Assembly: GCA_036172245.1 (NCBI GenBank)
Contig: JAYWIR010000044.1
Coordinates: 1-64,000, forward strand
Reading direction: 5' to 3'
Origin: Raillietiella orientalis
Taxonomy: Eukaryota
Length of the DNA: 64,000 bases
Made by a program: the position numbers and the translations under genes. Below are positions 1-54,124 of this stretch, one piece after another. Every line of letters starts with the position of its first letter. Within the stretch, counting starts at the first letter, position 1. The notes below the pieces were generated by a model. That model was not told the origin of the DNA, ran no database searches, and saw only the letters and a list, made by a program, of their open reading frames with translations.

Positions 1-2406
1 GGCGTCCCATCACAATAGTGAATGCGGATGCCAAGTTGATAGCTAAGGTTTGGGCTCAGCGGCTGGGATGGGTTGCCAATGCCTTCATCAGCCCGGAGCA
101 GACGTATGCGGTTCCTGGGCGAAGCATGGAGGCGAACCTGTTCCACGCTTCCACCTGGCTAGAGTCCCAACAAGAAAGGAGCTTCGTGCGCAGCCGGGAT
201 TCCGGTGCGTGCGCCGGCAAAGGGTCGGATGCTCGGGTGCGGGAGGAAGCCCTTGCTGTCGCAGTCGATTTGCGGAAAGCATTCGACAGCGTCGACCAGA
301 ATCTCCTGTTGGTGCTTCTGGAACGCTTGGGCTTCCGGGCCTCATTGGTGGCCTATCTGCGCTCCTGCTGGCGCGACGCGCTCATCAACGTTTCTTTCAG
401 CGGGCAGACCGTGCACGGCGTGCCGGTGCGGCGTGGGATCCGGCAGGGACACAGCCTGAGCCCCTTGCTCTTCAGTACCTACTTTGATTTGGTCCTGAGA
501 GCCTACAGGGAAACTCTGAGGCACCTGCCGCACGACTGCGCCGGTGCGCCGGCGGTTTCAGCGTACGCGGACGACCTTCTGCTGCTGCTCCCTATGTCCA
601 CCCCGGTTCCGGCAGTCGAGGAGTTCTTCGACCTGCTGCATCGGGGAACCGGGCTTACGGTGAACAGGGGGAAGTCGTCCGTGATACCAGCTGGTGCGGC
701 GTGGGTAGGGCAGCAGGACTGGGTCCTTCTGGGGATCCCCACGGTGAGGTACTTCAAGTACCTTGGTGTGCCGTTGGGGGACTACTCCCCTGCGGAAGCG
801 TGGTCCGGCTGCCTCGAAGAAGTAGAGACGGCGATCGGCCCGTTTCGAGGCGGCAGGTTTTTCCTGCCTGAACGGGCCGCGGTTTGGAACACCTTCGCGG
901 CTCCTCTCCTCCGCTCCCTGCTTTTTGTTTACCCCCCCACAGAGAGAATTAAAAAGCGGACAAAGGACTTCCTCCGTATCGCCCTTTGGGGCAACGGGAG
1001 GGCCCGAGTCCGCTCAAAGGACTTGTGCGCTCCTCGTCGGGACGATGGTCTGGGCCTCCTGACGCTGGAGCGGCTGGAGCTTCAGCTCCAGTTCCGATTG
1101 TCGGCACTCGTTCCAGAGTTGTGGTGCACCTGTTGGTGCGTCCCTGCACGTCTCCTTCTCCAGCAAGCCACTGGCAAGACGGGACTCACGTCCTTTTTTG
1201 GATTCCATCGCTCCCGCATGTACCGATGTGGGCTCCAGCTGAGGAAAGTGGCTGCCTGGCTTCGGAAAAATCAAGGATGGATCACCTGTCGCCCCGCGAA
1301 TGGTAGTGTCTGGTTGCAGGAAACCGTTCGCACGTGGGCACCATGCGGCATGCAACGCGCCCAACAGGAACGACGGTTTCTTTTTGGGTGCTACAGAAGT
1401 TGTACGCTCAGTGAGATCCCGAAAGATCCGAAGAAGCAATCGTGGTCAGGAAGAACGGGAAGGGCAACGTTGCTGTTGTATCGCTGCTGCGCTGGCCTTT
1501 CTAGTGGAAGATCAGGACTGCTATGTTGCGGCGAAATGGGAGGTATAAAGCAACCATTTCCGGAAAGAAGAAGATGCAGGAAGAGTTGGAGCCGGGCCAG
1601 TTAACAGACGCTGCGACACCGAGTACGCCTCCTAATGGAGTTCTGCGCTGAGGAACGCTGCTCTATGCTCCGATTGAACATCTGAAGTGGCCCCCGGTGC
1701 TCATGAACACTTTCATTCTCTTCTTAAAATGGCAGGAGTCAACTCTTCTGTTGCAGCACTGGGGACTCCCCTGCAACGCCCGCGGACACCACTGGACCTG
1801 GGGAGCTGTCGATGCCAACTGTGTTAGGTGTGGTAAACGGGAGTCTTTCCCCTATCTTCGAGTGGATTGTGTTGTCCTCCGGCCTCTTTGGTTCCGCTTT
1901 GCCATGGCCATCGTTGTCCCCTGCGGCAACGCCAGGGACGCATTGAAAGCCCTCTTCGTTGCCGAAGCCCTTCGGCCAGCAGCCTCGATAGCGGCGTTGT
2001 GCTGCCTTCGCGGTATCGTCGCGGCATGGTGCACGGCTACGGGAGGACCATGCGATAAGGAGGCCATTCAGTGCTCCGCCCAATTCCTGTGGAGGGCGTC
2101 GCGATAGCCCAACCTGGTTCCGCAAATGCAGAAAGAGGTTGTCGGCATTCTGAGAAGGATGATGCGGCCCCTGCAGAAACAGTGATCCCTTCCCGTTCCC
2201 TCCCACTCTTTTTTTTTCTTTTTGTTTAGTTTTTTGTTTTTCCTCCTTTCCCCTGCAGCCTTGGTGGACCGCACCTGTCTGCAAGCCGGTCACCCGGCAG
2301 GCTCCGTGTTTCTCCGTGCGTAGCTGGAGCATTGCTGAAGTCACTGCCATGTTCTTGTAAAGTTTATTTTTGAATAAACGACCCGGCGAAATCCGGGTGA
2401 AAATCA
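1..2406 (+). mobile_element. L1/Tx1-like LINE, 3' half of ORF2 (RT + zf-RVT) and 3' UTR; frameshifted, runs off the window start
   Basis: RT motifs RPITIVNADAK, AVDLRKAFD, GIRQGHSLSPLLF, AYADDL, FKYLGV. C-terminal CVRC...E..PYLRVDC. Stop followed by TGATCCCTTCCC, T-tract, then AATAAA-hairpin at 2373-2398. Confidence 0.93.
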
Positions 2407-3537: not shown

Positions 3538-4170
3538 ATGCAGCATCGTCCTTTATTACCCAGTTGCGCCGAAACGTTTATTTTAAATCATCTGGGAACT
3601 GTGTTCCCAGGCAAGGGAACAGAAGATGGGGTGGAGTGTACCCGACACGCAGGCCGGACACACTAAGAGTTCGGAACGGCAAGGAGGGGACAATAAATAA
3701 ATAAATATGGTGGGAGGGTGAGAATAAGGGTCCGCAGTTCTATCCGTTTTTTGTCTCAGAACCGGCGGTGAATGCCGGCAATCTCCGTCCTCACTTCTGC
3801 GTCAAGGTGTGGCCACCCGGCAGCCAGTTGCAGGTTGCAGGCTGCAGTGTCGGGGACCGATGTTGGGACCGCTCGCATCTGCAATACGTGGCGGGCCCTG
3901 ACAGTGGTGCGGACGCAGCAGATGATTGCGACGACCGCTCCAAGAGAAAGACCGCCACGCGTGAAGAAGCGGCGCATCCAATCCGTTGCGGTGTGTACGG
4001 GGTGCAGGAGCGCTGAAGACAGCCGCTGCCACAGCTCCTGGAGGGCACCGCATTCAAATAGCAAATGCGGAAGCAATTTCACCACTCCGCATGTTGCACA
4101 GTTCGGGGACGTGACTCCCCTGGAAACCAAGTGCGCGCGCTGGATGCAATACAAACCTCAATGCACTGAG
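3538..4170 (-). mobile_element. 5'-truncated LINE (zf-RVT C-terminus + 3' UTR)
   Basis: ORF 3756-4154 CATC...PHLLFEC, near-identical to 23570-23980. 3' hairpin at 3553-3582. Confidence 0.88.
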
Positions 4171-5519
4171 GTGCCATTATAGTGCAGTGTTGTTTTCTTC
4201 ACGGATCCCTTTCGCGGAAATCGAATCCGAACTCCGTGGACCTCGCACGCGCTAACGTCCAGCTCACGAGCCTGCTTGCTGTTGTCGCAGGCAGCAAGCA
4301 TGGGATGCGCCGGCGAACGGAGTCTTTGAGGGAAGCGCATGTTCCACCCACTGCTGCTGTGCTGAACAAAAATTCCGACGCTTATCCCGTCATTCGCGAT
4401 TCGCGCAACGGGCGTGTGCTACGCTACAGAATGCGTGCGTTCATCCAGACGGTGGTGAAGTACGAGAAGGGCCGCTGCACAAGTACGAGGTACCTGCGGA
4501 TATTTCCGGAAACGCAACACGCACGCCTTGGGTGGTCACAATGTACAAACGACGAAGGACTGCCGCTAGACGGAACGGGAAAAGAGGAAACCAACGAACA
4601 GGATGAATTGTTTGCGAGAATCGGGAAAAGGGAAAATCGAGCCAAAGTGGGAGTGCCTGCGTGCGAGAAACGCTCCGTTTCCGTTGTTTCGCACGTTTCT
4701 GTGCATCAGTGTGCACGGAGTCCGGATGAAAGGGCACTCTCCAAACGCATTGCTCGAGCGTCTGCGCACCCGATTGTGTGACGTCGGCACGGCCACCTCT
4801 CTGTTCGTCAACGATTTTTGTTGCTTAGCAAAGGAGATTCTCCCTAACGGAAGAAACGTGTGCTGCTTGCGAATTCGGATGTCGGATGGACTCGTGCATT
4901 TCGTGGAAGAGATCGCAACTCGGAGTATCGTACTGCTGCTGAATCCATTGCTTATCTACTTGTGCATCGCTTGTGAATTCCGAAGTTCATAGAGAAGGGC
5001 AACTCCCAGCCGGAAGTAATTAGCATCACTGCGAATCCGGAACTTGGAATTCGGTACCGAAACCAATCGAAAAGCGAGTCTTGTCGCTTGTAGTATTCTT
5101 GCTTTTTCCTTCAAAAAAGACTCGCCTATATTGCCTCCGAGCTTTCGCCGTACTGTCAACCCAGAAAAACCAGTGGTCCTTGGATCTGCTTTCCTCAGGA
5201 TAGCAGATCCAAGGACAAAGCTGAGCACTGGTAAGATGAATGCAAGGTCCGTGAGAATGTCCAAAATCCTGTGGCGCACGTTTGACGCAGGTAGTGATTC
5301 GTAGCTTGCGCACTACTCCCAGGTCGACTCCCTCGCAATCGGGAAATGTGTTAAGCCTGGGTTGGGATCTCGTCTACGATCATGTCCCTGCATTTCGGGA
5401 AAGAGAAGCCCGATTTTCCGAAGCAAAAAGCTTCGATGGGGACAGGACAACGTGAGAATCTGTACGGAAAGCCATTCTCTGGTACCGTGCCTGCACAGAG
5501 AACCCAGAAGGAAACGGAA

Positions 5520-7223
5520 GAGGTGGTGGCGGTTGGTGCGACGTGGGCTCGACGGCCTGACTGGATCCGCTTAGGGATCCCCGCAGCCAGGTACCTGAAG
5601 TGCCTTGCCGTGCCGTTGGGGGACTTCTGCCCTTCAGAAGCCTGGTCAGTTCGTCTCCAAAAAGTAGAGTCGGAGATCGGCCCGTTCCTGGACGACAAGT
5701 TTACCTTGCCGGAACTGACTGCGGTGTGTAAGGCGTTCGCGGCTCCCATCTCGGTTCCCTACTTTTTGTTCGTCCCCCCACTGAAAGGACAAAAAAGCGG
5801 ACCAAGGTCCTCCTATGGATAGCCCTGTGGGGTAGGGAGAGGGCCCGAATCAGGCTTGTGTACTTGAGCGATCCGCGTCGGGACGGCGCCCTCAGCCTCC
5901 TGACGCTGGAGCTCCAGCTCCAGTTTCGGTTACTCGCCCTAGTGGCGAAATATTGGAGTAGCAGTTGGTGCGAGCCCGCACGTTTCCTCGTCGAACAGGC
6001 CACCGGCAAGGTGGGACTGTCTTCCTTCCTTGAGCTCCGTCGTCGCCGCCAAGTCGGCCACTGCGGTTTGCAGCTGCGTAGAGTGGCTGATTTGATGAGG
6101 ACGAACGCGAGATGGCTTCCCTGTCGCCCTGTCAACGGAACTGTCTGGCTCCAGGAAGCCGTTTGCACGTGGGCGAGGAGCAAAATAACGCGTTGAACAA
6201 GATCGAAGGCAACTGTTTGCTCGCAATGACCGCCTTACGCTTCGTGAGATTCTGGAGAATCCCCAAAAACGAGCGTAAGCGAGGAAAACTCCCCTCGCCG
6301 CAATGCTGTCTTCTCTTGCGGAACATTTGGACAGCAACACTGCGGCGGCATGGGAAGTGTTCGCGAAAATCTGCGGTACGGTGCAAAAGATCGGGAAATG
6401 GAAAACGGGGATTCCATGTGATACTGCGTCTCGGATTACCATCCCAATTGGACTTTTGCACTGGAACGAGGTGCTCGAAGTTCCGACAGAACGACTTAAG
6501 TGGCCCCCGGTACTTATGAACACCTCCACCCTCCCCTTAAAATGGCAGGAGTCGGCTTTCCTGTTGCAGCACTGCGGGCCCCCTTGCAACTCTCGCCGAC
6601 ACCATTGGACCTGGGGAGCGGTGAACCCTACTTGTGTGAGGTGTAGAGAAAGGGAGTCCCTCCCCCACCTCCTTATGGATTGCGTTGCTCTTCGGCCCCT
6701 TTGGAACCGCTTCGCCGCGGCAATCGGTATCCCCTGTGGCAACCCCAGAGACGCTATTGGGTCTTTCTTTGTTTGCAACGCCCTTCGGCCAGCAGCATCG
6801 TTAGCAGCTATGTGCTGCTTTCGCGGGATCGTCGCTGCTTGGAGCAAGGCAACGGGAGGACCACGCGATAAGGGTGCTGTCCAATGCGCAGCCGAATTTC
6901 TGAGGACGGCGACAGGATGGACCCATCTGGATTTGCAAATCAAAGAACAGCTTGCCGGCATTCTAGAAAGGATGGAACGGCCCCGCAGTAGACTGTGATC
7001 CCTTCTCGTGCCCCCAGATCTTGTTTCTATAATTTTTTCTATTTTTTTCTTATATGTTTTTGTTTTGTCTTGGCCCCTCTCCTGTCGTGGTAGAGCGCAC
7101 TGGACTGCTAACCGGTGACCCAGGTGACTTACTGTTGTTTATTGGAGCGTGGCTGGACCACCAGTTAAGCTACAGGCTCTTGTTTTGTTCCGAAGAATAA
7201 ACTCACCGGTGCAACCGTGTGAG
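5520..7223 (+). mobile_element. 5'-truncated LINE (late RT/thumb to zf-RVT, 3' UTR), frameshifted
   Basis: WIRLGIPAARYLKCLAVPLG; RRDGALSLL; CVRCRERESLPHLLMDC; AATAAA-hairpin at 7196-7223. Confidence 0.9.
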
Positions 7224-7237
7224 AAGCGAGAGCGAGC

Positions 7238-9230: not shown

Positions 9231-9602
9231 TTAATGGTACTTGGAGATGCCTGGCATTGTGGACCCAACCGCTGAAACATACGCGTCAGCTGCGGTCTCC
9301 GAAATCCCGCCAAGGGTTGTGCCAGTGCTTCTTCAACGCATGGTTGTTGTCCAGATGCAATGGAGACTGCTCATCCTTTGGACTGCACAACGTTTATTTC
9401 ATCTCAGTACATGGAGCAGGAAAAACAAGAATTCCACAAAGCAAAGAGTTTTTCCCGATGCATTTAGAAATTGTCTAACACATGCTTGCGTCGAGTTTCT
9501 AATGTTGGGACAGAAATAGACAGAAATTTCCCGTACTCATCCCGAATGGAATTTTGAGAAGTGACAATTGGAATGTGCGGCGCAACTCGGGATTGTAAAA
9601 GT

Positions 9603-10998
9603 TCATCACCCGGTCACTCCGGGGCGTTTATTTAAAATAAACCGGTCAGGGACAATGTCCCTAACCAAAGAAAGGACAAGGAACAAAGAGAAGTTTCCAG
9701 CACACAGGCCTGCTGAACACAAAATCTGGAGGGAGGGGTAACGCCTCTTTGGTGGGGCTCCGTACTCACGGGGATTCACAAGAGAGAGCACCTAGAATGT
9801 TCCGGATCCTAAGGGGACGGAAGTGGAAGAAAAAGAAAAAAAAACATAAACTTGATGGGAGCGATGGGAAAGGGTCACCGGGTGCGCTGCTGGGTAGCGT
9901 CTGCAAACCGACGGTGTATGCCGGCGACATCCCTTTTTGTGTCCTCGGTCAATTGAGGCCATCTGGCTACCGCTTCCATATAGGAGGCTGCCTTTCCGAC
10001 TACCTGTTGATACTTCCCGTTGATTACCAGCGCCTGACGGACTGAAACTATGGCGCGTATGCAACCGAAGGTTGCAATCCTTGCGCTTGCAGACAGCCCG
10101 CTCGGCGTGAAGAATCGTCGCAGCAATTCTCTTGCCGTGTCCAAGGGATGCATTAGTGCTGTTGCCAGGCTACGTCGCGGTCCTTGTAGGACACCGCAGT
10201 TCAGAATAGGTGCGGGATCGACTCTGTCGAGCCGCACCGAACGCAGTTCGCAGACGCAGGTCCCCCGGAGTCACGATGCCAACGCTCGTTGCACTGAAAA
10301 CCTTAATGAACGAAAAGCAGCACGGCTTGTTTCCAAGCAAGGAAGAGCAGCGAATTGTCAACACATTGTGGAGGGACTACAAGTTCTTCGTGGGTGACAC
10401 CAAGTTCTTCTGCCCACCGGAAGAGTCCCTTTGCAGTAGGACGAGGATTCGCGCGTCCGCTTACTCACTCGTCTTCCAGGCCCCAAGGAGTTTCGTTTTT
10501 TCCGCTATCGTGCAGGAAACCTCTTACCTCGCCGGTTGGCATCTGACGTTTCTTGCCCTGAGGGCAGACAGCGCTGCGGCGAGAGGCGTGGCAGCCAGGG
10601 TAGAGAACTTCACCTCGTCATGCAGTACTTCTTCCAAGGATCGCGGAAGAAGATGGCGCTGGGGGCGAAGATCTTCAGGGCGCATTCCTGGGAACGCCCC
10701 CGGGATTCAACAGACTCCTGCCGCCAAGCGTCGAAGTTCATTGGGCTTGAAGAGGTCCACGAGTAGGCCTCCAGAAGTGCGGCCAATTGCCGCAAAGGAT
10801 AGCCGAAACCTCGCTTCCTGTATTGCGAGCCCGGAAACAGCGGCAGCAGTCCTCCGCTGCCGGCGCATCTCCGCAGGAGAATGCGTGCTGGCACACACAG
10901 GGGGGATGTCCACAGCAGGGCACACAGTGCCAGCTGTCGGAACTGCACCTGCAGTCCGATTCGCTTCATTGTCAGGATACCCAATCCAGCATCCCGAC
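9603..10998 (-). mobile_element. 5'-truncated LINE with a 23-bp target-site duplication
   Basis: RRDAGLGILTMKRIGLQVQFR. Flanked by GCGCAACTCGGGATTGT(A/G)AAAGT at 9580-9602 and 10999-11021. 3' end reads AATAAACGCCCCGGAGTGACCGGGTGATGA. Confidence 0.92.
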
Positions 10999-11349
10999 GC
11001 GCAACTCGGGATTGTGAAAGTGACTCCAAATTGTGTGCACTTTCCATAGCTGAAGCTCTTTTTGGAATACTTGGCAGCAGCTTTCTTCGTAGTGCTTGCG
11101 TATTGCTCGCAGTCATCTGCTTTTCATGTTGCGATTACTAAGTTACTATAGTTCTTTCAATGTGCCAAAGCTGGTGAGCGTTATTGTGCTACCAGCATCC
11201 GCAGACGATAATCACACTTCAGGACCACGCATAGATGTTCGGCACGCTGAGCAGCTCAAAAAAGGAAATTCTGCTCTCGTTGCTTACTGAAGGATAAAAT
11301 GGACTTCTCAATAACCACCCTTCGAGCGCAGGCAACTGTTTTTGCTGTA

Positions 11350-18552: not shown

Positions 18553-19665
18553 TTTTCACCCGGGTAAGCCGGGGCTTTTATTATTTTAAAAAATCAAAAT
18601 TACAATTTATAATTGCAGTCGATTGATTTTTCATTGTTCTTGTGTTCCTGTCGGAAAACATTTCCTTTTTGTTTTGCACTCATTTACCGACTTGAGTGCC
18701 GGTAAGGCCTAGTCCACTCGCGAGGGGGACGGGAAAAAGGAAAAAAAATACAAAACAAGAAAAAAACGCCTGGGGGACATTGTTTATGGGAAGGGAAGGG
18801 ATCACTGTGCGTCGAGGGGAGGCCTCTGCATCTGGTTCCCGATGCGAACAAGTGCTGGCAGAATTTTCCTTAGCCGGCGCAAACGGGTAGCCTTCTCCAT
18901 GGAGATGACCGCCCAGTGGATGGCATTCCGACTGCTGTGGCCTCTTATCGACGCGTTCCACTTGTCCAATATTCCTCGTATGCAGCAGAGAACTGCAACA
19001 TACGCGGCACCTGACAGGGAGTTCCGCATCAAAAAGCGACGTAAAATGTTTTTAGGGTCGCTCACCGCTACGTTTATGGCCGACGAGAGTCGATCCCACG
19101 TTCGGCGGAGGGCAACACATTCGATGAGTAAGTGGGGGAAGGTCTCCCTTTCCCCACACTCTGTACAATGGGCATCCAATCTCCCCAATGTCCAGTGAGA
19201 CAGGCGTGCTCTGCTCAAAAGTGCCCAATGGAGCACAAGCAGCGCCGTCTCCTGCCAATCCAAAGGGAGGGTGCCACTGTCCCAAGACGCCGGGGGGCAC
19301 TTCACCTCCTCCGGAGCCATGTCGAGCAGCTCGCCCCAGCACACAATTCCATTTGGCGGGACACTCGGGGTTGTAGCGTTCGCTAGTTCCCGGAACGTCC
19401 ACGCCTTCATTGGTTTTTTCCTGCCTCCGATGAGGCAGGACACTTCGAAACAAGCGTCCTCTTGGCTGTCCCTGGCGGGAGCCGGGGAGCAGGAGCAGAA
19501 GGTCCTCCGCATAGGCCGAAACGGCAGGCGTGCCGACACACGAGCTGGGCAGGGTTGCCAAAGTCTCCCTGTATGCTCTCAGCACCAACTCAAAGTAGAT
19601 GCTGAAGAGCAGGCGGCTGAGGCTGTCGCCCTGCCGGATGCCGCCACGAACCGGCACGCCGTGGT
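18553..19665 (-). mobile_element. 5'-truncated, internally deleted LINE (RT core fused to C-terminus + 3' UTR)
   Basis: HGVPVRGGIRQGDSLSRLLF..AYAEDLL joined directly to the region before CTECGERETFPHLLIEC. Hairpin at 18555-18582. Confidence 0.9.
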
Positions 19666-19671
19666 TCATCG

Positions 19672-19760
19672 TGCTTGGCTGCAGCAATACTGCAGCCACT
19701 GACATTTTATTGTAAAGTTTATTTTTAAATAAACGTCCCGAAGAAATCCGGGTGAAAATC
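19672..19760 (+). mobile_element. Solo LINE 3' tail (~90 bp)
   Basis: Aligns with 2316-2405, including AATAAACG-hairpin-GTGAAAATC. Confidence 0.8.
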
Positions 19761-21922
19761 GGAAGCTTTACGCAGATCGACTGCGACCGCAAGGGCTCCG
19801 GGCGCCGATTCACCACTTCGGCTTCCCTACTCCCGATCTGTGGAGAGTCCAAGACCCTCTAAACCTAGCTGAGCCTCGCGTTGTTGCAACTGCCACCAGC
19901 TGTTGGCGAGGAACAGGTTGGCCTCCATGGTTCGTCCGAGAACAGCGTGAGTCTGTTCCGGACTGACCACGGATTCCACTACCCGTCCCAGTCGCTCAGC
20001 CCAGTGTTTGGCAAGCAACTTCGCGTTCTTTAGCACCTACTTCGAGTTGGTGCTGAGAGCGTATAGGGTAACTTTGGCCCCCTTGCCGAGCTCGTGTCCC
20101 GGCACGCCAGCCGTAGCGGCGTATGCCGACGATCTTCTGCTCCTCTTACCTATGTCCACCCCGGCGAAGGCGGTCGGAGATTTTTCCGACCTGCTTAGCC
20201 GTGGGGCCAAATTACAGGTTAACAGGGCGAAGTCGTCAGTGTTGCCAGTTGGAGCGACGTGGGCAGGGCAGCAGGACTGAGTCCGTCTGGGGATCCCCAC
20301 GGTGAGGTGCATCAAGTACCTCGGTGTGCCGTTGGGGGACTACTCTCCTACGGATGCGTGGTCCGGCTGCCTCCAAAAAGTGGAGACGGCGATCGGCCCG
20401 TTCCTGGAACCCGTGTCCCGGACCGCGGTTTGGAACGCCTTCGCGGCTTCCATCCTCCGCCCCTTGCTTTTTGTTTGCCCCGCCCCGTAGAATGTAAGAA
20501 GAGGACGAAGGACCTCCTCCGCATTGCTCTTTGGGGCAATGTGAATCCCCGAGTCCCTTTGAGGGACTTATGCGCTTTGCTTCGGGATGGTGCTCTTGGC
20601 CTCCTGACGCTGGAGCGCTTGGAGATTCAGCTGCGATGGCGCACCCTCGCCATCGCAGCGAAGTCGTGGAGCACCTCTTGCTTCGTTCCGGCACGCCTCC
20701 TCGCCAGGCGTGTGTCCCGGTGCGAAGGACTCGCATCTTTTCTTCTGTGCCCTGGCCGGAAGATCAGAAGATGCGGCCTACTGCTGGGGCGCATGGGAAC
20801 CCTGGCAAAGGAAAACAGCTGGATGGTTTGCAGCCCTGCCAACTCCTCCGCCTGGCTGGAGGAGACTGCTGGCACCTGGGCTGCTGTAAACCTGCGGAGT
20901 GATGAATCCTGCAGCCGCCTGCGCTCCGGCATATACGCCCGCCGCACTCTGCGGGAAATACTGGAGTTTCCCGCGAGCTGCACTTGAGCCGATGCGACAC
21001 CCCTTGCTACGGCGATGCCCTTCCTGAGGAGGGCGCTTCACGGCAGCAGGACGCCGAGGTGTCAAGTCTCCTGCTGCATCGCGGGACGGGAGAAGATGAT
21101 GAGCGGCTGGACCATGGGTGAGCTGGCGGACGCTACGACCCCGAGCGTCCAGCCGCGAGGAATACTGAGATGGGGCGAGCTGCTCGCCATCCCCAGGGAT
21201 GAGCTGAAGTGATCCCCAGTCTTAAGAGAATCCAGGATCCTGCCCCTCAAGTGGCAAGAGTCGGCGTTGCTCCTGTTGCACTGGGGTCTACCCTGTAACG
21301 CACGCCGCTTTCACTGGACAAGGGGAGCTGTGGATCCTGCATGTGCCAGGTGTGGGGAGCGGAAATCGCTCCGCCACCTTATTGTGGATTGTGCTGCCCT
21401 CCGACCCCTCTGGGAACGGTTAGGGACGATCCTCGGTCTCCCTATGAGCAGCGCCCCCAGAGATCTTCTTCGGCTCCTCTTCGTGGGGGGCGCCTTTGAG
21501 CCAGCTGCAGCCGTGGCAGCACTCTGCTACATCCGAGGCATCGTGGTGGCCTGGAGCGATACCCGCGACGAAGGAGTGGATCTGAACGCGAGGGATGTCA
21601 TCATATATGCGCAACGCTTCATGCGGAGAGCTACAGAATGGCCTCAGCTGGCTGATATTCGGATGGACCTCGAGGGTATCCTGGGAAGGATGGGCCCTCC
21701 TCCCAGTGTATAGTGATCCCTTCCCCTCCCACCAAACTCTTTTTGTTTTTCTCATTGTTTTCTTTTTCCTTTGTTTTTCTTCCATCCCCTTTCACTGCCG
21801 AGGAGAGCCACACCGGGCTGAGTACCGGCGACCCGGGAGGTCCTGTTGCGTTGGCTGTAGTGGAGCCTAGTACCACGAATTGTAAAGAGAATTTATAATA
21901 AACGCCTCGGCGTGACCGGGTG
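19761..21922 (+). mobile_element. LINE with a 5' inversion (19761-20025 antisense RT motifs, 20026-21922 sense)
   Basis: Minus strand: AKLLAKHWAERLG...AVAVDLRKA. Plus strand: FSTYFELVL..AYADDL..IKYLGV..CARCGERKSLRHLIVDC, then 3' hairpin at 21897-21922. Confidence 0.88.
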
Positions 21923-22235
21923 GCAACGTACAGGGAGGAGTAAAACTTCCTCACAATCCCGCGCCTCTCAGCAGGAGCCGAGTGCTCCCGACCCTGGTCG
22001 TCCAGCAAGCTGGCCGACCCGGATTGCCAGGCTTGCTTCTCGGCTCCCGCTCGATACTCCGCTAACCTGCGCATGTCGGGACTTCTCGCGTAACGTCGGG
22101 CCTGGAGATAGCACCTTTCGTTACGCGACCTCTCCTTGAATCCCACAGGTAGGCGATGCAAAGGGAACTGTTCGCAGAACTCCTGGACCGACCGCTTAAA
22201 GCGGTCCCAGTCCTGAAGCGTCCGCCGCTTCGATC
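21923..22235 (-). mobile_element. LINE ORF2 linker (between endonuclease and RT) fragment
   Basis: WDRFKRSVQEFC...LLDDQGREH...IVRKFYSSLY, typical of the L1/Tx1 pre-RT linker. Confidence 0.65.
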
Positions 22236-23340
22236 GGAAGTGTCCCATCGCTGCTCCTGAGTTTGCGTTTCCTTTGCGTTGTGCGTGGTGTGGGTGGTGG
22301 ATTAGGCAGCAATGCCTGACGCCACCACCGGTGAGGATCCGGGGCCGATGACCCCTTTGCCCCTGGACGAGTTGGAAGTGGGGGCTTCCACCCCACTGAT
22401 GCGCCCCGGCCCTACTCAGAGCCTGGAACGCCGTGGCTGCGGCACCTATGCCGGCGACTATGGCGGAGATACGCGCCTACCTGGAGGAGGGGTATAACCC
22501 ACCCCTCCTATACAAGGTAAGGAATCTTTATTTACCGGAGAGCGCGAGTGCCTCCTCGCAGGCGATGCGAGCTCTCGGAGTACAAAATGAGGAGCTTCTG
22601 GCCATGTCTGTCAGAAGCGGAGGTCAATTTGCGGAATTGATATGCAAGGAGGCAGCTCTTCCGCAGAGACTTTTGCGAACCCCTGTAATGATGGGCAGCC
22701 GGAGGCTTCTCCCAGTTACGGAAGATCGGTCGGTGTTTGTCCACCTGACCGGTATTACGTTCCGGATGACCAAAGAGGCCGTCCGGAACGAACTGGAAAA
22801 ATTTGCGACCGTTCACGCGGTGTGGGGCAAGACCACGCCGTTCGTAGACTACGATGGGATGCTTAGCGGCCTGGCTACAGCGCGTGTTACGGTTCGCGAG
22901 GGATGTGAGTTTCCTCACAAACTGTGCGTCAACGTTGAGTCCGTTGACGTGTGGTACGTGGGAAAACCCAAGTTCTACGGCTGCTGCGGCAGCTTTGGTC
23001 ACCTCAGAATGACGTGCACGAGCGTGCAGTGCCAGCAGTGCAAGCAAGCGGGGCACACCCGTCGAGTGTGCCTTCAAAATTTAGTCCGTGTCGCGTCCGC
23101 GAAAAACGAGAGAAAGCGCGCGGCTAAGAGACGCAAGAAGCTGGAAGAGCGAGCTGCAGCTAAGGAGGTCACCTCCGCCTCCAAGGCGAAGGCCAGTTCC
23201 GAGACCCCGGCAGAAAAGGCCGAGAAAGTCGAGGACAACGGCCAAGTGCCAGAATGGCAGAAGGTCGACCCCAGGAAAAAAACTCCAAAGGAGGGAAAGA
23301 ACGTGGCGAAACGGAGCGAAACCGCTCCGCGCCGCGTAAA
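22236..23340 (+). mobile_element. LINE 5' UTR + nearly intact ORF1
   Basis: ATG at 22312 with a frameshift into ORF 22433. RRM-like VHLTGITFRMTKEAVRNELEKF; knuckles YGCCGSFGHLRMTC and CQQCKQAGHTRRVC; basic tail. Confidence 0.87.
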
Positions 23341-23349
23341 TACGAAAAC

Positions 23350-25288
23350 ATGCTGCGTCGTCGTTTATTACCCGGTTGCGCCGGGACGTTTATTAATAAC
23401 ATCATCTGGGAATCGTGTTCTCAGGCAACGGGAACAGAAGATGGGGAGTAGGGTTCCCGGAACACAGGCCGAACTCACTGAGAGTTCGAAACGGGTGGTA
23501 GGGGACAATAAATAAATTAATACGGTGGGAAGGCGGGGATAGGGGCATGCAGTTTAGCCGTTCCTATTCTCAGAACCGGCGGTGAATGCCGGCAATCTCC
23601 GTCCTCACTTCTGCGTCAAGGTGTGGCCACCCGGCAGCCAGTTGCAGGTTGCAGGCTGCAGTGTCGGGGACCGATGTTGGGACTGCTCGCATCTGTAATA
23701 CGTGGCGGGCCCTGACAGTGGTGCGGACGCAGCAGATGATTGCGACGACCGCTCCAAGAGAAAGACCGCCACGCGTGAAGAAGCGGCGCATCCAGTCCTT
23801 TGCGGTGTGTCCGGGGTGCAGGAGCGCTGAAGACAGCCGCCGCCACAGCTCCTGGAGGGCACCGCATTCAAATAGCAAATGCAGAAGCGATTCCAACGCT
23901 CCGCATGTTGCACAGTGCGGGGACGCAACTCCCCTGGAAACCAGGTGCGCGCGCTGGTTGCAGTACAAACCCCAATGCACCAGCAGGAAAGCGTTCTGTT
24001 TCCACCGAAGGGGGAAGAGAGTCGCGTCCAAACACGCAGAAGAGACCACAAGTTCTTCGGCGGGCACCCCGAGGAGCTCACTCCACCGGAGAAGTCCCTT
24101 GGCACGAAAGCGAGGGGTGGCAGCGACTGCCACCTCGCAAGTCCTCCAGCCGCCCAGCAGTCGGGTTTCTCCTGCGATTTCGCAAGCGCCCACCTACCTC
24201 GCCGGCAGGTCACTGTCGTCTCGAACCATCAGTGAAGACAGTGCTTCGGCGAGGGGCGTAGCGGCTAGGCGTGTCCAATGGTCCTGGTCTTCAAGCAGCT
24301 CCCCCACTGGACAGTATGAAAAACGGTTCACGCAACGGAGTTCCAAACGGGACGCATCCTGTTGCGCTGCTCAGGACGATGAGGCTTCCTGCCACCAGGC
24401 GTTGAAGTTCGTCGGCCGGCAGGAGATCCACTCATGCTTTCCCAGAAGCGTGGCGAGCTGCTTCAGAGGGAAGCCGAATCCTCTCTGGGCGCGCTCCGTG
24501 CGCAGATGCAACGAACGTAGTCCGTCGCCACCCGTGCAGCGCCGCAGCAGCAGCCGCGCTGGAGCACACCAGGGAGTAGTCCAGAGCTGGGCACAAAGTG
24601 CCGCATGCTGAACTGCACTTGCAGTCCGATCCGCTCGAGCTTCAGGATGCCCAATCCTGCATCCCGCCGAGGAGACACCATTTCCTTGAGGCGGATCCTG
24701 GAACCCGCCGGTCCCCACAAGGCATTTCGCAACAGGCGTTCCGCCCGACGCTTAGCCGAGTAGGGAGGGGGACCAACAAAAAAGAGGGGACGGAGGAGGT
24801 GGGTGACGAAAATGTCCCACACGAAGGCCCATTCCGGCAGGAGAAACCTGCCGCCTTGGAACGGGCCCAGAGCAGTCTCGGCCTTGTGAAGGCAGTACGA
24901 CCACGCTTCTGCTGGACAGAAGGCGCCCAAGGGAACGCCAAGGTACTTCAAGCACCTGACCGTGGGGATCCCCAGGCGGATCCAGTCGGACTGCCCCTCC
25001 CACGTAGAGCCAACCGGTACAACGGTTGATTTCGTCCTGTTGACGCTCAGGCCCGCTCCCCGACGAATGAGCTCGAAGAAGTCCTCGAGCCTGAACGCCG
25101 GGGTGGACATGGGCAGCAGCAGGAGAAGGTCGTCAGCATAGACGGTTACGGCCGGTGTTCCCGGGAGGGAGCTCGGCAGGTTGGCCAGCGTCAGCCTGTA
25201 CGCCCTCAGCACCAACTCAAAGAAGATGCTGAAGAGCATGGGGCTTAAGCCGTCTCCCTGCCTGATACCCCGCCGTATAGGAACGCCT
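23350..25288 (-). mobile_element. 5'-truncated LINE (RT motif 4 to 3' end), frameshifted
   Basis: GIRQGDGLSPMLF, VYADDL, LKYLGV, RRDAGLGI, CATC..HLLFEC. Hairpin at 23366-23394. Confidence 0.93.
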
Positions 25289-26201
25289 CACACGTGGTGC
25301 ACGCTCCATGAACACAGACTTCCATAATCGGCGATTTCCCTGACAATACACCCGCTGCCATCCTCTAATGGAGGCACATCGCCACGCTGATCACACATTC
25401 TTTACCATCTGACACCATAATCGACCCCACATCCCACCTTGCCAATGTCCATTTAAGACAAGGCGGCTGCCTGAGATTCAGGGACCACTGCGAACCATTT
25501 CTACTTTTGCAGAGATGAACAAACCTTCTTGCCGCGGAATCTGAAAATAAACACATGCCGAGTATATATTTTCGAAAAGCAACAAGACGAAGCACTTCTG
25601 CGGGGGGCACCTCGCAGTCCGACGGCAGTGCGCGATGGTCAACCGCGTGACGGCGTTTTTGCCCCCGTGCGCTCCTCTGATCGCGCAACACAACCGACTT
25701 CGAACGATTGATGGCTTCAGATTGCCAGGAGTACAACTAGCTCTTCTACACGCGGGCGCTCATGCACGGTGTCGAAGTCAGGCATACCATCTTGCACCGT
25801 CTCGCAACGTCGGAAACTGACTTACCACTCTCCCTGAATAAAAGACACTCTGCTGCAACCTTATGGCGATCCCCATGACCACGAAATCGACACATCTGCC
25901 AGCATTGCAACAACGTCTGGCTTCCATGGTAACTCTTCGTTGCTGCAAACTCAAATAGCTGTCCCTTGGTCCTTCTGTTTATCATTACCTCCCACTATCC
26001 TGCAGTTGATCAGCAGTAAACAGGAATTTTCGAAATATCTCCCGCTGCTCTTATCGGTAGCCCCCCGTTGTCCTGAAATTCCTTGACTCTCACGCAAGGT
26101 ATGATGATCTGATTTGTGATTTCATTTTGCAACCATAGCTTCCTAACTAGTACATTTTCCAGCTCGAGATACAATTCGATCTCTTCGACACATCCTCTGA
26201 G

Positions 26202-26936
26202 GTGATCATGCAACTTACGTCATTCGACTCCCAACAGCACTATCGACCATACACATTTCTTAGACTCCCCATCCATTCAAAGCTCACAGTGAGTCTACAC
26301 TCTACCTGGAGGTACCCTCTGCGACCCATTCGACGTCGCAATACATCCCTTGCCCAAAAGAAGACGATAAAAAGGAAGCGATCTGGAAATGGGAGGAGCT
26401 CTCCTCCCCGCAGAGAAGTGCGTTTCCGCGATCTGATTCCACGTGTTAATCTTCCGTCCACATCGCGGTCACACAGGATTCCTTATCCGGGTGCCCGACA
26501 GTCCGCTCCCCGTGCAGCAATCCCAGCGTTATTGCACAATGTTTCTCGTGGTTCCCCTCCTTCTCAATTGGAAATTCTTCCACCCCAGGATGCTCAAAGG
26601 CCGCCTTGGAACCCTCCTTTCTCTACTGAATCCGATTCAGACTATTCTACAGTTCCGACCTCCCATGGAGTAGGCAGGAGCTCTCCAATCATTTCTACTG
26701 CTCCGCCTCCATCAACCTCTCATAGATCTCAGGACGACCACGTCTTCGCGGAGTTTCGTGATTCCCACCATGATACATCTCCCGACAGCAGCGAACTCCT
26801 CTGGATGGCTGTTATAAGTGATTATGAGCATACTTTGCGAAAGAACCTTTCTCGACTTGCCGCCATCAGGAGGTTCTTGTGTTCATGCGATTGCTTCTGC
26901 CCAACAATTAAGAAGTCTCGACGTCCTTCCCACTGA
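26202..26936 (+). CDS. Hypothetical S/P/R-rich low-complexity ORF (copy at 38286-39020); may be a pseudogene fragment
   Basis: 244-aa ORF open in both copies, no recognisable domain. Confidence 0.25.
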   Translation: MIMQLTSFDSQQHYRPYTFLRLPIHSKLTVSLHSTWRYPLRPIRRRNTSLAQKKTIKRKRSGNGRSSPPRREVRFRDLIPRVNLPSTSRSHRIPYPGARQSAPRAAIPALLHNVSRGSPPSQLEILPPQDAQRPPWNPPFSTESDSDYSTVPTSHGVGRSSPIISTAPPPSTSHRSQDDHVFAEFRDSHHDTSPDSSELLWMAVISDYEHTLRKNLSRLAAIRRFLCSCDCFCPTIKKSRRPSH

Positions 26937-29900: not shown

Positions 29901-29979
29901 GGGACTTTTGCATGCAGGTGCGTGTTCACGCCCTCATGTGCGTGGACTCACGATGAGGTCACGCCGCTTGACCTAATTT

Positions 29980-31050
29980 TTCCATCATCTCTGTCCAGCG
30001 GTCCGCTCGAAACCATGCCCGACAACGGACACACCTGCACGACAGCTGACAAAAAGACCGGGATCACTTGACAACTCGAGGGCAATGTCATGAAGCGCAT
30101 CTGCTGGAAGATCTGACTTTTGCAATTTTGAAAACTCACGTGCTCGCAGTTTCAGTGCAATCTTAGAGAGCTCCTGCAAAACCTTCAGTTTCGACACGTG
30201 AAATGCTCAATGGGAAACCATTTCTTCGGATTCTCTCCGTACAGTTCGAGCGCTTCGATGGATTTCTTACCAACATTGTACTCACTGGGGCATAGAGGGT
30301 ACAAAGATGCTGCGGGAGCCAGTGCAAAGGACCACCAACCAAACAAGTCCACATCACGGAATACCAGATGCCCCCAATATTTGTCACGGTGCTTCCAACG
30401 GATGTCGAGATAAAAAGGAAAGCCAATTTGAAAGACGGCTTTTCCGAAGCATCCATCCTTTAATGTTTTTTGATTAATTAATAAATATGGAGACGACCCA
30501 TAGCACCTGAATGGGCAAAAAAACATTTCCTTCACTTTCGAGAAACACGAACCGTAGACAAAATGAGCGCAAACGAGCATTTTTTTGCGAAATGGAAGTC
30601 TTGCCACATCTGCAGCATCCAGGTTTCTCACGGATCACATGAATGCGCAGCAGGACATCAAGCTGACCTGCTTTGACCTCTCCGTTGCGCCTGCTCGCGA
30701 GATCGAGCAGATCTCGATCCGTGGGAAAGTCGAGCAGACTTTCCCACGGGCGACGGGCATCCGGGCCGACATCGTCGAATCATCAACCGAAGTGCTCGCT
30801 TCTGCGAGTTCTGAGATTGCGGAAACGGAAATTCTCCTTCCGATACTCAACGAGCGCCCCGAATTGGTGGAAAGGGTTATTGCGGGAGTTCAGGGATGCC
30901 TTCTGCGATCGCCGCCGACGCTCCGGAATGTTTCGGCTTGCGGGGGATGATCCGCACCGCCGTTCTCTGCTTTCTTAGCGGCATGCTGCTCTACTGGTAC
31001 GCCCCAAAGAGGGGTCGGAATGGAAGGGATGCTATCCTCTTCCCGGAAAT
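29980..31050 (-). mobile_element. Decayed MULE transposase (copy at ~42090-43150)
   Basis: FYLDIRWKHRDKYWGHLVFRDVDLFGWWSFALA resembles the MULE D.T.K.NKY..L....VD.FG motif; later ..ALHDIA is CxxH-like. DNA homologous to 50390-50780 in inverted orientation. Confidence 0.5.
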
Positions 31051-31493
31051 TTTCGCAGCGATAGCCACGAGGCGGAATCACCTGGGAAATATGCGATGCG
31101 AACATGCAGGATACTGAAAATCACTTCGAGGGTGTGGAGGCGCACATTCATTTATATCCCTCACAGAAGTTGTTGATTTCTCTTCTTTTCATGATTGTCC
31201 ACCCCTTCCTTCACTGGCTTCAACGGACCCCCTCGGTCTGCCTATTGGCGCTTTGGAAGATTTATTATGTGTTATTTCTTGGTAGAACAGAAAGTCCAAC
31301 CGCACCTGGTGTCTTTTCTTATCATTCACATCTGAAAATTCTTTTACAACTCCGGGTTCATGCGATCGGATGCAACGGTTTCAGAAAGCTTCTTTTCCTC
31401 GAGGGACGAATGTGATGATCGTGCGTCCGCTTTCGTTTGCGTTCCAGGCGGCAGCAACACGGCTCCTGCTTGTTCTCTGTGGACCACTTTACG

Positions 31494-31529
31494 CCAGCAG
31501 CAAGAGGGGCCGGCCCCTCTTGCTGCTGG
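31494..31529. repeat. Perfect 36-bp palindrome (also 43596-43631)
   Basis: CCAGCAGCAAGAGGGGCC|GGCCCCTCTTGCTGCTGG with no spacer. Confidence 0.97.
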
Positions 31530-31737
31530 TGGGCTCCATAGGTAAGTGGTGCTCCGCTCGGTCGGGATGTTTGAAGAGGCTGCTCGGAGGAGGATGGGCG
31601 TTGCGGCTGGACACCGTATGTGCATGAAGTATAAAGAAGGGATGGGGAATTCACATTGGGAACGTACATTTGTGGTGACACAGGTTGATCGATAGCAGGC
31701 AGGAAGATTAGTCTTGCGAAGGATGTGCAGAGTGATC

Positions 31738-45545: not shown

Positions 45546-45726
45546 CGGAGAGCCTCTACCGCTTCTCGCCTCTAGCCTTCTCTAGCTGGCACTGCAGATG
45601 AAGGTGGGCTCGTGCATGGCGTGCGTACAGAAAACGCTGAAGACACAGGAGCTCCTCGGCCGTGCTGGTGCTCCGTGTGTGTTTGCAGTGGTGGCCAGAT
45701 TCGCGCATGTGAGCACATTTTCCTGT

Positions 45727-49237: not shown

Positions 49238-50390
49238 TATATATATATCACCCGAATTGCCCAGCGTATTTATTATTAAAATTTTTATTCAATGTAAATT
49301 TCATAATAAATCCTTTAACTGAGTGTAGGCAGAACACGTGCTTCTGGCTATCTTGACGCATTTGCCGCTGCCAGTTTGCAGGCCGCAGAGATCCTGCCCG
49401 GATGCGATGGGGAAGGGAAAACTACAAACAAAAACAGAAAATTAAATTAAAACCAAGGGAAGGGAAATGTTTTTTGGGGAGGGGAGGGCTGGGATGAAAT
49501 CACTGGTCTCTCCGAGAGGTTCTCTGCATCCTGCTCAGGATGCGGATAAGTGCCGGACGTAATGATCTCAGCCGGGACCATCGGGAAGCTTTCTCAATCT
49601 TGAGGACCGCCCATTGGATGGCGTTCCGTCTGTTATTTTCTCTGTTGGACGCAGTCCATTTGCCAGGATCCCGCGTATGCAGCAGAGAACTGCCACACAC
49701 GCGGCTCCTGGCAGGGAGTCCTGCATGAAGAGGCGATGGAAAATGTCCTTCGGATCGTCCCCGGGAATGTTCAAGATCCCTGACAGTCGATCCCACATGG
49801 ATCGAAGGGCGATACACTCGATGATGAGGTGCGGGAAGGTCTCTTGTTCCCCGCACCCTGAACAATTGGCATCCACTGTCCCTGAAGTCCAATGGAAGAG
49901 GCATGCTTTACAAAGGAGTCCCCAATGGAACAGTAGCAGTGCCGTCTCCTGCCATTCCAGGGACAGGTTGCGACAATCCCAGCACACTGGGAGCCATTTC
50001 ACCTCCTCTGGAGGTATGCCGACCAGCTCGCCCTAGCGCACAATTCCTTCACACGAAACGCTCGGGTTCGCAGCGTCCGCTAACCCCCGAATCGTCCACG
50101 CCTTCAATGGTTTTCTCCTGACTCGGATGAGGCAGGACACTTCCCACAATGTTCGTTCGTTGCTGTTCCTGATGTTCCTGAGGGAGGACAGCACGAGGGC
50201 ATGGGGGGTCAAGGAAGCCCACAGAAACTTCCACGGGCTGTTGATGATCTCCTGCAGGGGCTGTCGAGCGTTGGGTCCTCGACGGAGACAGTTGTCCTCC
50301 TCCTCGCTCGTGCCATTGCCAATCCGAAAGATGCCGCAGCGTCCGAGCCGCTTCTGCTCTTCGCTTTCCCCGGCAATGGGGGCGCTCCCT
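49238..50390 (-). mobile_element. 5'-truncated LINE ending in hairpin + (TA)n
   Basis: WQETALLLFHWG..CSGCGEQETFPHLIIEC; AATAAA-hairpin at 49247-49274. Confidence 0.88.
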
Positions 50391-51632: not shown

Positions 51633-54124
51633 GATTCTCACCCGGGTGCGCCTAATGCTTATTCTAATGAAAAATAAACATTTTATTAGAATTGTGGCTG
51701 GACCGGCAGTTCAACCACGTGCTTTTTGTGAGCGCCTGCCGGCTCACCAGTTCACAGACCGGCGGGGTCCACCATGGCAGCAGTGAGGATGAGGGCAAGC
51801 AAAAATAAGAATAAATACACTTTGGGCCTGTGTGGGAAAAGATCGCTGTCTGCTGGTGGCGACTCTGTGCATCCTTCGTAAGATGTCGGCAAGGTCGTGC
51901 TGCATAGTCCTGTACATGTGGGGCCATCGCGTTGCCATCCTCATGAAGCGGACGACAACGTGGATGTGGCGTCCCTGTCGCCGTGTTCTCTGGCGCCACT
52001 CCAGGCAGAGACGATCCCGCGTAGGCAGCAGAGGGCTTCTAGAGAGACTGCAGCCGAAGGGCGTCGCGTAGGAAGGGGTGCTGTAAAGCGTCCTTTTAGT
52101 TGCCAGCTGGGGTTCCCAGCATCACGGCAAACTGTCCCGAAACGGCCCAGAGGGCAACACAGTCCACAAGCAGGTGCAGGAGGGATTCGCACTCCCCACA
52201 GGTGGCACAGTTTGGGTCCACACATACTCGCGTCCAGTGATAACGGCGGGCGTTGCAAGGGAGACCCCAATGCAACACCAGCAGTGCCGACTTTCGGACG
52301 TGTTTTTTGTGCTCTCCTGACTCGCTCGTTTTCAGTGGCGTAGTTAGGTGATTCAGTGATTGGAGGATGGCAGAAATACCTCAATCCGCTACTAGAGAAT
52401 GTGGGGGAGGCGACTGTCTAAGTCTCCTGTCCCCATGGAGGTAGGGGCATCAGCCCCCGAATCATCGTCCCCCGCGCCAGCGAGGGACTACAGCGCCGTG
52501 GTCGCCGTGCCATCTGCAGCGGCCATAGCCGAGGCCCAGGCCTACAAGGCCTCTAATTACAACCCCAGCCTGCTGTACAGGACAGGCAGGGTGTTTGACG
52601 ATTGTGTGGCGCGCTCTTCGAGCAGAAGCTCCACCAATTGAATGTATCCAGGGAAGAGCTGTTGGGGCTCTCTATCAGAAGCGGGGGCAGCCCGTCGAGC
52701 TGACCTGCAAAGAGGCAGATTTGGCTCAAAGACTGATGTGGACCCCGTGAGGATCGAGGGCCGCCAGCTCTTCCCCATTCCGGTGGACAACTCGATAGTT
52801 GTCCACCTTAGAGGAATCACCCTGTGAATGCTTTCGAGCGCCGTCAGGGCTGAACTTAGCGAATTCGGCACCGTGCACTCACTGTGGGCCAAGTTCAACA
52901 GATTCCGTACGTACGACGGACTTCTGAGCGGACTCGCCGCGGCACGTTGACGGTCGCCAAGGATATTGGGCTTCCTCACAAACTAGTAGTCTACGGAATC
53001 TCCGCCGACTACCTCCACTGGTGGACAGAACGATGGGGACGCCATCTGCTCCTCCCTGTGCTTCCTGAGGACGGCAGCCGGATGGTCTGATCTGGAACGT
53101 ATGCGGACTGAACTTGCCGGCATCCTGAAACGGATGTAGAGGACGACCCCAGCGGAACGTGATCCCTTCCCCGACCCCACCTGATTTTGTAAATAGTATT
53201 TTCTTTTTTTGTTGTTTTTATTTGTCCCTTCCCCCTCCGCTGCCGAATCGAACTTGCCGGCATGCGCTCTGGCTACTCGGTTAAGTTCAGAGTTTTTGTC
53301 GGACGTTGTAGGGGCACCGGCCCTACACATGCTGGTTTATTTTTTTGACGAAAATAATCGCCCCGGCGCACCCGGATGTGATGACAGCGCCGCTTCAAAG
53401 GGATAATGCGGGTTTCTATGAGCACCGGGGGTCATGTCAGGTGCTCCAGTAGCTCGCCCCAGAGCAAGAGTCCATGGGGTGGTGTACTCGGGTCACAGCG
53501 TCTGTGAGCTGGACCGTTTTCCACTGCTCCAATCCTTTCTCCTTTCCAGAGATGCTCACTGTAGTCTCCCATTTCGCCGCGACGCTGCTGCTCAGGTGTT
53601 CCCTGAGGGAGGACAGAGCTGCGAAGAAAAAGGTTCTTCCTGCCCATGAGCTTTTTCCAGTATCCTCCTGGATCTCTCGGAGCGTGCAGCTGTTGTTGCG
53701 CACGAAGAGGTGACAGCGCACCTGTTCCGTGCGTTGCTCCTGGCTCATCGTCCACGTGAGAACGGTTTCCTGTGGCTAGGCACTACTATCCGCAAGGTAG
53801 CAGAAGATCCATGCCGTGTTCTTCCTCGTCTGCGTGGCCACCCGTCGAAGCTGCATTCAAGTGGCAGATGTTGCGGCAACAAAGTTCAAGGTAGGCTGCG
53901 TTGGAAGTGATCTGCTCGACGAGGAGGTGTGCAGGGTCGCACCTGGCGGTGCTTCACAATTTCGCCACGTGAACAAGTATTTTCCATCGGAGCTGAAGCT
54001 CTAGCCGCTTCAGCGTTAGTAAGCCAAGACGTCCGTTTCGACGCGGAACGCACAAGTCCTTCAGGCAGACTCAAAGCCTCCCTTCGTCCCAAAGGGCGAT
54101 TATTAGAAGGTCCATTCATCCACA
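51633..54124 (-). mobile_element. 5'-truncated LINE with a 12-bp TSD, interrupted by a nested element
   Basis: GGCACGTTTTTT at 51621-51632 and 54125-54136. LHWGLPCNARRYHW..CATCGECESLLHLLVDC; coding sequence resumes across 52285/53390. Confidence 0.85.
52295..53384 (+). mobile_element. Nested ~1.1-kb internally deleted LINE (5' UTR + partial ORF1 + last ORF2 codons + 3' UTR)
   Basis: Starts CGGACGTGTTTTTT; YNPSLLYR and VVHLRGIT match ORF1; ends hairpin-GTGATGA. Flanked by CAGTGCCG / CAGCGCCG. Confidence 0.82.

Follow-up and report, generated by a model that had tools for sequence, protein, structure and literature searches.

Tail-less 3′ ends, probably set by lineage-specific hairpins, in an L1/Tx1-type LINE radiation of Raillietiella orientalis

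Among plant L1 families, 224 of 233 end in poly(A), and 9 of the 233, together with 5 of 15 algal families, have no 3′ repeat (PMC3472496). Stringent L1s on record include LINE1-1_ZM from monocots and L1-1_CR from Chlamydomonas, both members of the L1 clade with a conserved 3′ end and partner SINEs. The monocot lineage has a 3′ hairpin with compensatory changes, and L1-1_CR, which is poly(A)-ended, has its tail in common with a SINE (PMC3472496). The literature has not settled if L1 elements were originally stringent or relaxed (PMC3472496, PMC3747384). Vertebrate L1s carry AATAAA and poly(A) in all species examined (PMC5381506), and their ORF1 is of the Transposase_22 type. Human ORF2p recognises mainly poly(A), and a stem-loop can position RNA on it (PMC12503042). 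The Tx1 group (Xenopus Tx1, Keno, Kibi/Koshi and crocodilian Tx1-Mar) lives in animals, encodes an APE-RT-zinc-knuckle ORF2 and an RRM/CCHC-type ORF1, and prefers sites within other transposons (PMC4494074 and PMC5203782); the crocodilian SINEU partners of Tx1 carry poly(A) (PMC4494074). The stringent L2 elements UnaL2, ZfL2-1 and ZfL2-2 end in a small bulged stem-loop with a constant stem and a family-specific loop. The L2 ORF2 protein binds this structure, reading stem and loop separately (PMC4176376), and UnaL2 ends in TGTAA repeats (PMC3747384). R1Bm and SART1, of the R1 clade, are APE LINEs with sequence-specific rDNA or telomere targets, 3′ UTR recognition and RNA-target pairing when copying is initiated (PMC7265360 and PMC6007223), and SART1 copies are poly(A)-ended. 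PMC5135761 is among the sources on ORF2p poly(A) recognition, R1 pairing, bulged 3′ stem-loops and ORF1 types.

The elements described here were followed from a 64-kb stretch of DNA (the window) at the start of contig C44 into the whole 210-Mb genome. They belong to the L1 clade in the broad sense and appear to behave like a stringent element of the L2 or R1 type. With the Tx1 group they share the animal host, the architecture of both ORFs and the preference for other transposons, but their targets are the ORFs of fellow L1s and their ends are tail-less and lie at a fixed distance from a hairpin. They resemble LINE1-1_ZM and L1-1_CR in clade and in having a conserved 3′ end; unlike those two, they live in an animal, lack a tail and showed no partner SINE in the roughly 1 Mb read. 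The small bulged stem-loop, with its constant stem and variable loop, recalls the L2 elements, whereas the RT is of the L1 type and no repeats follow. R1Bm and SART1 are comparable in endonuclease type and target specificity and, under the mechanism proposed below, in 3′ UTR recognition and RNA-target pairing, and differ in clade, in the sites attacked and in the poly(A) of SART1. Human LINE-1 also has AATAAA at its 3′ end, and its ORF2p is the closest solved relative (PDB, E 3e-45; R2, E 1e-13); vertebrate L1s differ in their poly(A) and in their ORF1. The contrast with known L1s drawn in the original prediction is softer than was implied, as stringent and repeat-less L1s have been reported (PMC3472496). 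Hairpin-dependent L1s and L1s without 3′ repeats are each known already, and what appears new is their combination in an animal L1/Tx1 radiation: a search of openly available papers, Repbase lying outside its scope, turned up no account of such ends, tail-less and hairpin-fixed, in any animal L1/Tx1 group.

Eleven 3′ ends had been predicted in the window. All eleven exist where they were predicted and all are 3′ ends of L1/Tx1-type LINEs; three fit the strict pattern and nine fit it with at most three substitutions. An ORF2 C-terminus lies directly upstream on the same strand in 9 of the 11. The first of these, a lineage-A ORF2 (3..2182, plus strand; RT, thumb and C-terminal zinc knuckle; Pfam RVT_1, E 1e-20), is 76-84% identical to the intact ORF2 of L062, is frameshifted near 1475-1556 and has its 5′ part beyond the window. 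It is followed at 2373..2403 (plus) by AATAAA, CGA, a CCCGG-CGAAAT-CCGGG stem-loop and TGAAAA (fold z -2.5), and the +6 rule set out below puts the element end at 2403. A variant end at 7196..7225 (plus; ORF2 end near 6986) keeps its folding (z -4.5). On the minus strand, motif matches and ORF2 homology identify a degenerate end at 3553..3582 (ORF2 end near 3762) and another end at 18553..18582 (ORF2 end near 18829). The two more decayed ends, predicted at 49247 and 51637, lie on the minus strand at 49245..49274, followed by (TA)n, and at 51635..51663, with ORF2 ends near 49661 and 51864. Motif and target site duplication (TSD) together delimit a 5′-truncated copy of 1.4 kb (9603-10998, minus; 3′ end 9603..9632), flanked by a 23-nt TSD at 10999..11021 (5′ copy, minus) and 9580..9602 (3′ copy, minus, one mismatch), the latter starting at +6. 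Three further ends lie antisense within other L1s: that of a truncated UTR copy of about 110 nt (19728..19758, plus), inserted at the RT 'VDLxKAFD' site of a minus-strand L1 at 19448-20027; that of a copy with ORF2 at 20026-21692 (21897..21926, plus), within another L1's ORF2; and that of a copy with ORF2 at 25311-23573 (23365..23394, minus), in the ORF1 of another L1 (22382-23365). The short copy at 19728 has no ORF2 upstream, and neither does the end predicted at 53352, which belongs to an internally deleted L173-family copy (52280..53382, plus; 5′ UTR/ORF1 fused to 3′ UTR, 3′ motif 53353-53382) with a degenerate TSD near 52280 and 53383, readable near 53384 as a start at +6 to +8.

The window also holds minus-strand ORF2 fragments of a lineage-B-like L1 (16521..18551, 41-45% to L191), and no B-type 3′ motif was found in its 64 kb. 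Apart from the LINEs, an 8.2-kb direct duplication (25305-33442 and 37389-45545, 96.6% identity) was observed, a 700-nt part of which recurs at 45720-46426 and whose scanned ORFs gave zero Pfam matches. There is in addition a 1.36-kb inverted repeat (60121-61478 and 62290-63648, 99.3% identity, spacer of about 810 nt), and perfect or near-perfect palindromes of 36-41 nt lie at 31494-31529, 43596-43631, 39861-39900 and 5176-5216.

Full-length copies measure about 5.5 kb. Their ORF2 of about 1,200 aa has the APE endonuclease, RT and C-terminal zinc knuckle required of the L1 clade (L1 and Tx1), and intact ORF2s match Exo_endo_phos, RVT_1 and, weakly, zf-RVT in Pfam. ORF1 carries CCHC knuckles (zf-CCHC); Pfam gave no match for an RRM, and in the Atlas it lies next to clusters of the zf-CCHC, RBD_ZCCHC3 and RRM types (0.91-0.94). 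The Type I ORF1 of the Tx1 clade (RRM plus CCHC knuckles) is therefore present, with the RRM assigned by cluster resemblance. A second Tx1 feature, target-sequence preference, is seen in subfamily-specific fixed sites, and the 5′ truncation and 10-25-nt TSDs expected of broad-sense L1s were both found. Protein relatives in the databases are at most about 33% identical. A FastTree phylogeny of the RT region (63 sequences, uncurated reference clade labels, lineage D left out) united lineages A, B and C in one clade (support 0.997), which joins vertebrate, plant and fungal L1-like proteins (support 0.928). In this tree, built without curated Tx1 references, the clade branches alone, about 30% identical to all database proteins. 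Anatomy and phylogeny thus agree with the predicted L1/Tx1-type placement. RTs are 59-95% identical within lineage A; the low-copy lineage C is 38-44% identical to A and carries the A motif; lineage B, found in 5.6-kb tandem arrays, is 27-36% identical to A; and lineage D, a single copy, is 36% identical to B. What was originally proposed as a single family is instead a radiation in which two or more different hairpins occur. A second, clustered LINE type with an RT also occurs in the genome (L246, L247, L249 and L250, the last two with a C-terminal restriction-like endonuclease motif), which we take to be R2/NeSL/Utopia-like.

The lineage-A pattern AATAAACGNCCCGG-N5,6-CCGGGT has 1,722 exact matches in the 210-Mb genome, against 0 for the reversed control pattern, and so does not arise by chance. 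Where 500 nt of upstream sequence were available, 177 of 179 local motif matches proved to be L1 3′ ends, recognised in 156 cases from ORF2 and in 21 from homology in the UTR. Two samples were drawn blind to the motif, from loci chosen by zf-RVT alone, and the motif was found 400-800 nt downstream in 26 of 30 (a sample containing four duplicate pairs) and in 35 of 40 (leaving one opposite-strand match uncounted); the loci that lacked it appear decayed or cut by other insertions. The motif is the normal end of the element and does not mark a selected subset. Its predicted formula needs correction at position 7, which is C, T or A (AATAAA-YG). AATAAA is about 99% conserved among local matches, in part because the search pattern imposes it. 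The motif is absent after 2 intact actin genes and after the histone genes examined. The actin is of animal type and the histone genes carry canonical stem-loops, in keeping with an animal host. Metagenome contigs gave 0 exact matches to it, and the metagenome protein relatives of these L1s are just 24-36% identical.

TSDs show where the elements stop. From the 188 local motif matches, 36 TSD candidates were obtained, and they start at +6 after CCGGG in 24 cases, at +5 in 4, at +7 in 3 and elsewhere in 5 (31/36 at +5 to +7). Control runs with foreign flanks yielded 7 candidates each in a flat distribution, with 3 of 35 at +6. An end 4-7 nt after the stem had been predicted; the distribution corrects this to +6. 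The structure-linked, nucleotide-precise end is therefore supported. Lineage-A TSDs are mostly 11-23 nt long and enclose inserts of 78-5,533 nt, and a lineage-C copy shares the +6 start. The spacer behind the stem is T-N-N-N-A-A, 6 nt, with A at +5 in 98% and at +6 in 95% of copies. Because most TSDs begin exactly at +6, the TGATGA, TAATAA and GAAAA formerly read as tails are versions of this fixed spacer, and no repeats follow it.

Poly(A), the hallmark of genomic copies of canonical (relaxed) L1s, is missing as predicted, and none was found in copies with an intact ORF2. Across the genome, only 9 places (10 matches) have a run of A7 no more than 22 nt from the 5′ arm, compared with at least 1,722 ends, and some A7 runs at motif ends are target-derived. 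Two ends, L114 (C10:1012614) and L118 (C46:276586), run directly into A9 and A15 and may have true tails; no TSD was found for them within 1.5 kb. The comparison set comprised 57 out of 79 L1-like loci, distant relatives from metagenomes, and the end of ORF2 could be resolved in 22. An A8+ run lies within 700 nt in 16 of these 22, several of the loci being redundant. None had the A motif, and one loose match to the B pattern was not the B hairpin. In L162, L177, L189 and L019 (lineage A) and L205 (lineage B), the base or bases past the usual end match the family and not the target. This suggests RNA extending beyond the usual end, as read from the genomic copies, and a mutation in the 5′ TSD could mimic it.

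The lineage-A stem, CCCGG/CCGGG, is invariant, and subfamilies differ in the loop but not in the stem. The covariation expected from the original prediction did not appear: at the single pair tested, scored by eye in the 73 copies where one position of the right arm is a pyrimidine, 0 of 73 were compensated, and 1 of 73 in a slipped register. Single-copy fold z-scores ranged from 1.1 to -2.5 for 10 of the 11 window ends, mostly not significant. Lineage B ends in AATAAA-YTYA-CCCCA-CCC-CNNGT-GGG-AC(Y)-TGGGG-AAA(A/C), again without poly(A), a pattern with 328 genome matches and 0 for its control. Among the first 100 of the 328 listed, scoring of the inner pair by eye gave 67 C-G and 22 G-C pairs, 4 wobbles and 7 broken pairs (C-C 0, G-G 1). 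In 26 B copies, hand-picked for variants, all 78 of 78 inner-stem cells pair (15 G-C, 11 C-G), which 0 of 500 shuffles matched, although this covariation may reflect one ancestral event. The B bulge varies between 2 and 3 nt with the stem kept, and upstream UTRs are often unalignable. The 8 TSDs that were usable among 12 B copies begin between +1 and +6 and for the most part overlap the A's of the tail, which fits an end near +4. The lineage-D copy lies 14 nt from the end of its contig and retains the fold of B; its outer stem has a T-A pair and its inner stem is longer (z -4.0). A genome search with its pattern matched that copy alone. Compensatory change in a stem-loop, a feature of stringent LINEs, is thus present in B/D and absent at the tested A pair. 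The hairpins of A and B are unrelated, and AATAAA and the presence of a hairpin are all that the two lineages have in common. In every lineage sampled, AATAAA is followed after 3-4 nt by a GC-rich hairpin, and the hairpin by a short spacer of fixed length (6 nt for A and about 4 nt for B). Rfam recognised 0 known RNA families in 4 loci. Identity with the histone stem-loop was rejected, as host histone genes carry the canonical loop, unrelated to the motif. No partner SINE sharing the 3′ end was seen in the roughly 1 Mb of 210 Mb that was read, where 177 of the 179 local matches are LINE ends, and the SINE search gave two weak ARAGORN calls at relaxed threshold. The observation is real and genome-wide and spans deep RT divergence, with each of its ingredients known separately.

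The explanation we favour, and consider somewhat probable from the genomic copies, is stringent priming measured from the hairpin: ORF2p would bind the hairpin, RT would start at a measured point and poly(A) would be left uncopied. Host cleavage and polyadenylation would use AAUAAA, cutting at or a few bases past the element end; ORF2p would bind the hairpin of its own lineage and so position the template; reverse transcription would then begin at a constant distance on the 3′ side of the stem, short of any poly(A). The 1-5 bases of RNA that follow may base-pair with the nicked target, and the endonuclease is probably the main setter of target choice, as in Tx1 elements. An end at +6 whatever the spacer sequence counts in favour of hairpin-measured priming, and so does the same +6 in lineage C at an RT identity of 38-44% to A. 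The constant stem with a subfamily-variable loop, paralleled in zebrafish L2 elements (PMC4176376), points the same way, as do the inner-pair swaps of B and the T-A pair of D. Counting against it are the lack of covariation at the tested A pair, the weak folds and the lack of a partner SINE in the sequence read.

Strict stringency also sits poorly with retrocopies of host mRNAs. Histone H2B and H3 retrocopy-like sequences without an A tail were observed (L092 and L098 from L090; L085 from L081); L092 and L085 stop 3-4 nt before the histone stem-loop and L098 3-16 nt before it, and the two H2B retrocopies align from the identical parent base. An intron-poor actin retrocopy with an A10 run lies at L106/L108 (G000:C17:208471-209700); its use as a measure of host poly(A) spacing was dropped, because a 10-nt direct repeat covers the junction and the A-run may be flank. 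Some RT in this genome therefore copies host mRNA without the hairpin, and the RLE-type LINEs that are also present could be the source.

Alternatively, and in our view fairly unlikely, the hairpin might act on the RNA itself, with the RNA cut at the element end and left un- or oligo-adenylated, and RT starting from that end. The hairpin could do so by folding out part of the distance from AAUAAA to the cut, which RNA folding is able to shorten, or by guiding a nuclease in the manner of the histone stem-loop. The conserved AATAAA does sit 3-4 nt before both hairpins, and the unpaired distance from it to the end, with the stem folded, is similar (about 9 nt in A, 8-9 nt in B). The A-rich ends (AA at +5/+6) and the continuation of L114 and L118 into A9-A15 are also in keeping with such processing. 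However, a host factor would be expected to impose one structure, and the hairpins of A and B bear no relation to each other, a pattern that co-evolution of each with the ORF2 of its lineage, and not with one host factor, would produce. Moreover, the element end is nucleotide-precise whereas host cleavage is usually heterogeneous, an RT starting from the RNA end would copy any tail, and the Rfam search of 4 loci returned no known RNA family.

Target sites bear on a further possibility. Of 188 3′ flanks, 93 map inside other L1 copies, in a sample enriched for L1-dense clusters, and the initial TSD bases are subfamily-specific. CGAAAT/TGAAAA copies lie antisense at the RT VDLxKAFD codons in 18 of 27 cases, CGCAC/TTTCAA copies at a single ORF2 site in 5 of 5, and one 3′ family has two different fixed target words. 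Such patterns could arise if read-through RNA included the target duplication of its source copy, so that 10-20 flank bases paired with the nicked DNA; the hairpin would set the start, and the target preference, inherited via RNA, would lead to the same site in other L1s. The long fixed sites, the two words of one 3′ family and the family-typical bases past +6 suit this idea, and pairing of read-through RNA with the target is reported for R1Bm (cited in PMC7265360 and PMC6007223). We nevertheless regard it as quite improbable. Between the two best-sampled subfamilies, endonucleases are 63-66% identical and RTs 84-87%, and this greater divergence favours specificity set by the endonuclease; dispersed copies have only the first 4-5 target bases in common; and most of the loci come from clusters dense in L1s. 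Copies that pair one endonuclease with different targets seemed to offer a test (L170, L174, L176, L159 and L177: endonucleases 97-98% identical, 3′ words differing), which was rejected, the checkable copies being recombinants. The 5′ and 3′ flanks of L170, L174 and L176 do not match, L170 and L075 have internal crossovers, and the 5′ ends of L159 and L177 were not located. L170, L174, L176 and L075 are thus composites whose halves or flanks derive from more than one copy or subfamily; ORF2 is intact in L174 and L176. Mostly antisense L1-in-L1 insertions at fixed sites were observed in the window (19728-19790, 21926-22251, 23365) and in L032-L060. Head-to-tail tandem arrays of full-length L1s with a period of about 5.6 kb occur in L191, C26, C53, C74, L063 and L065, and appear to have arisen by successive insertions into one target. 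A compound model, in which a tail-less L1/Tx1 radiation measures the RT start with lineage hairpins while the inherited flank pairs with the target and sends subfamilies to fixed sites in rival L1s, VDLxKAFD included, through a heritable RNA address, strikes us as distinctly unlikely.

That the motif works at the level of DNA or primary sequence, be it as a palindrome bound by protein or as a termination signal, with the tail lost after insertion or missing for another cause, is very improbable: the lineage-A stem and much of its loop are indeed conserved as sequence without covariation, but TSDs abut +6 in intact-ORF2 copies, so no tail was lost, the stems of B and D covary and B keeps its stem through changes of bulge length, and the lower stem of A has G-U pairs that, judging from the fold, would work on the sense RNA only.

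Under hairpin-measured priming, hairpin-ended L1s form a natural test of how elements pick the point at which copying starts. Tail-less, base-precise ends with two hairpins across 27-36% RT identity amount to natural swap experiments between the hairpin and ORF2 of A and those of B. Swaps of this kind could help to find which surface of an L1-type ORF2p binds RNA and to ask if poly(A) is needed at all. Builders of retrotransposon-based gene-insertion tools may also take an interest in a 3′ tag that is short and portable, gives exact junctions and comes with targets specific to each family.
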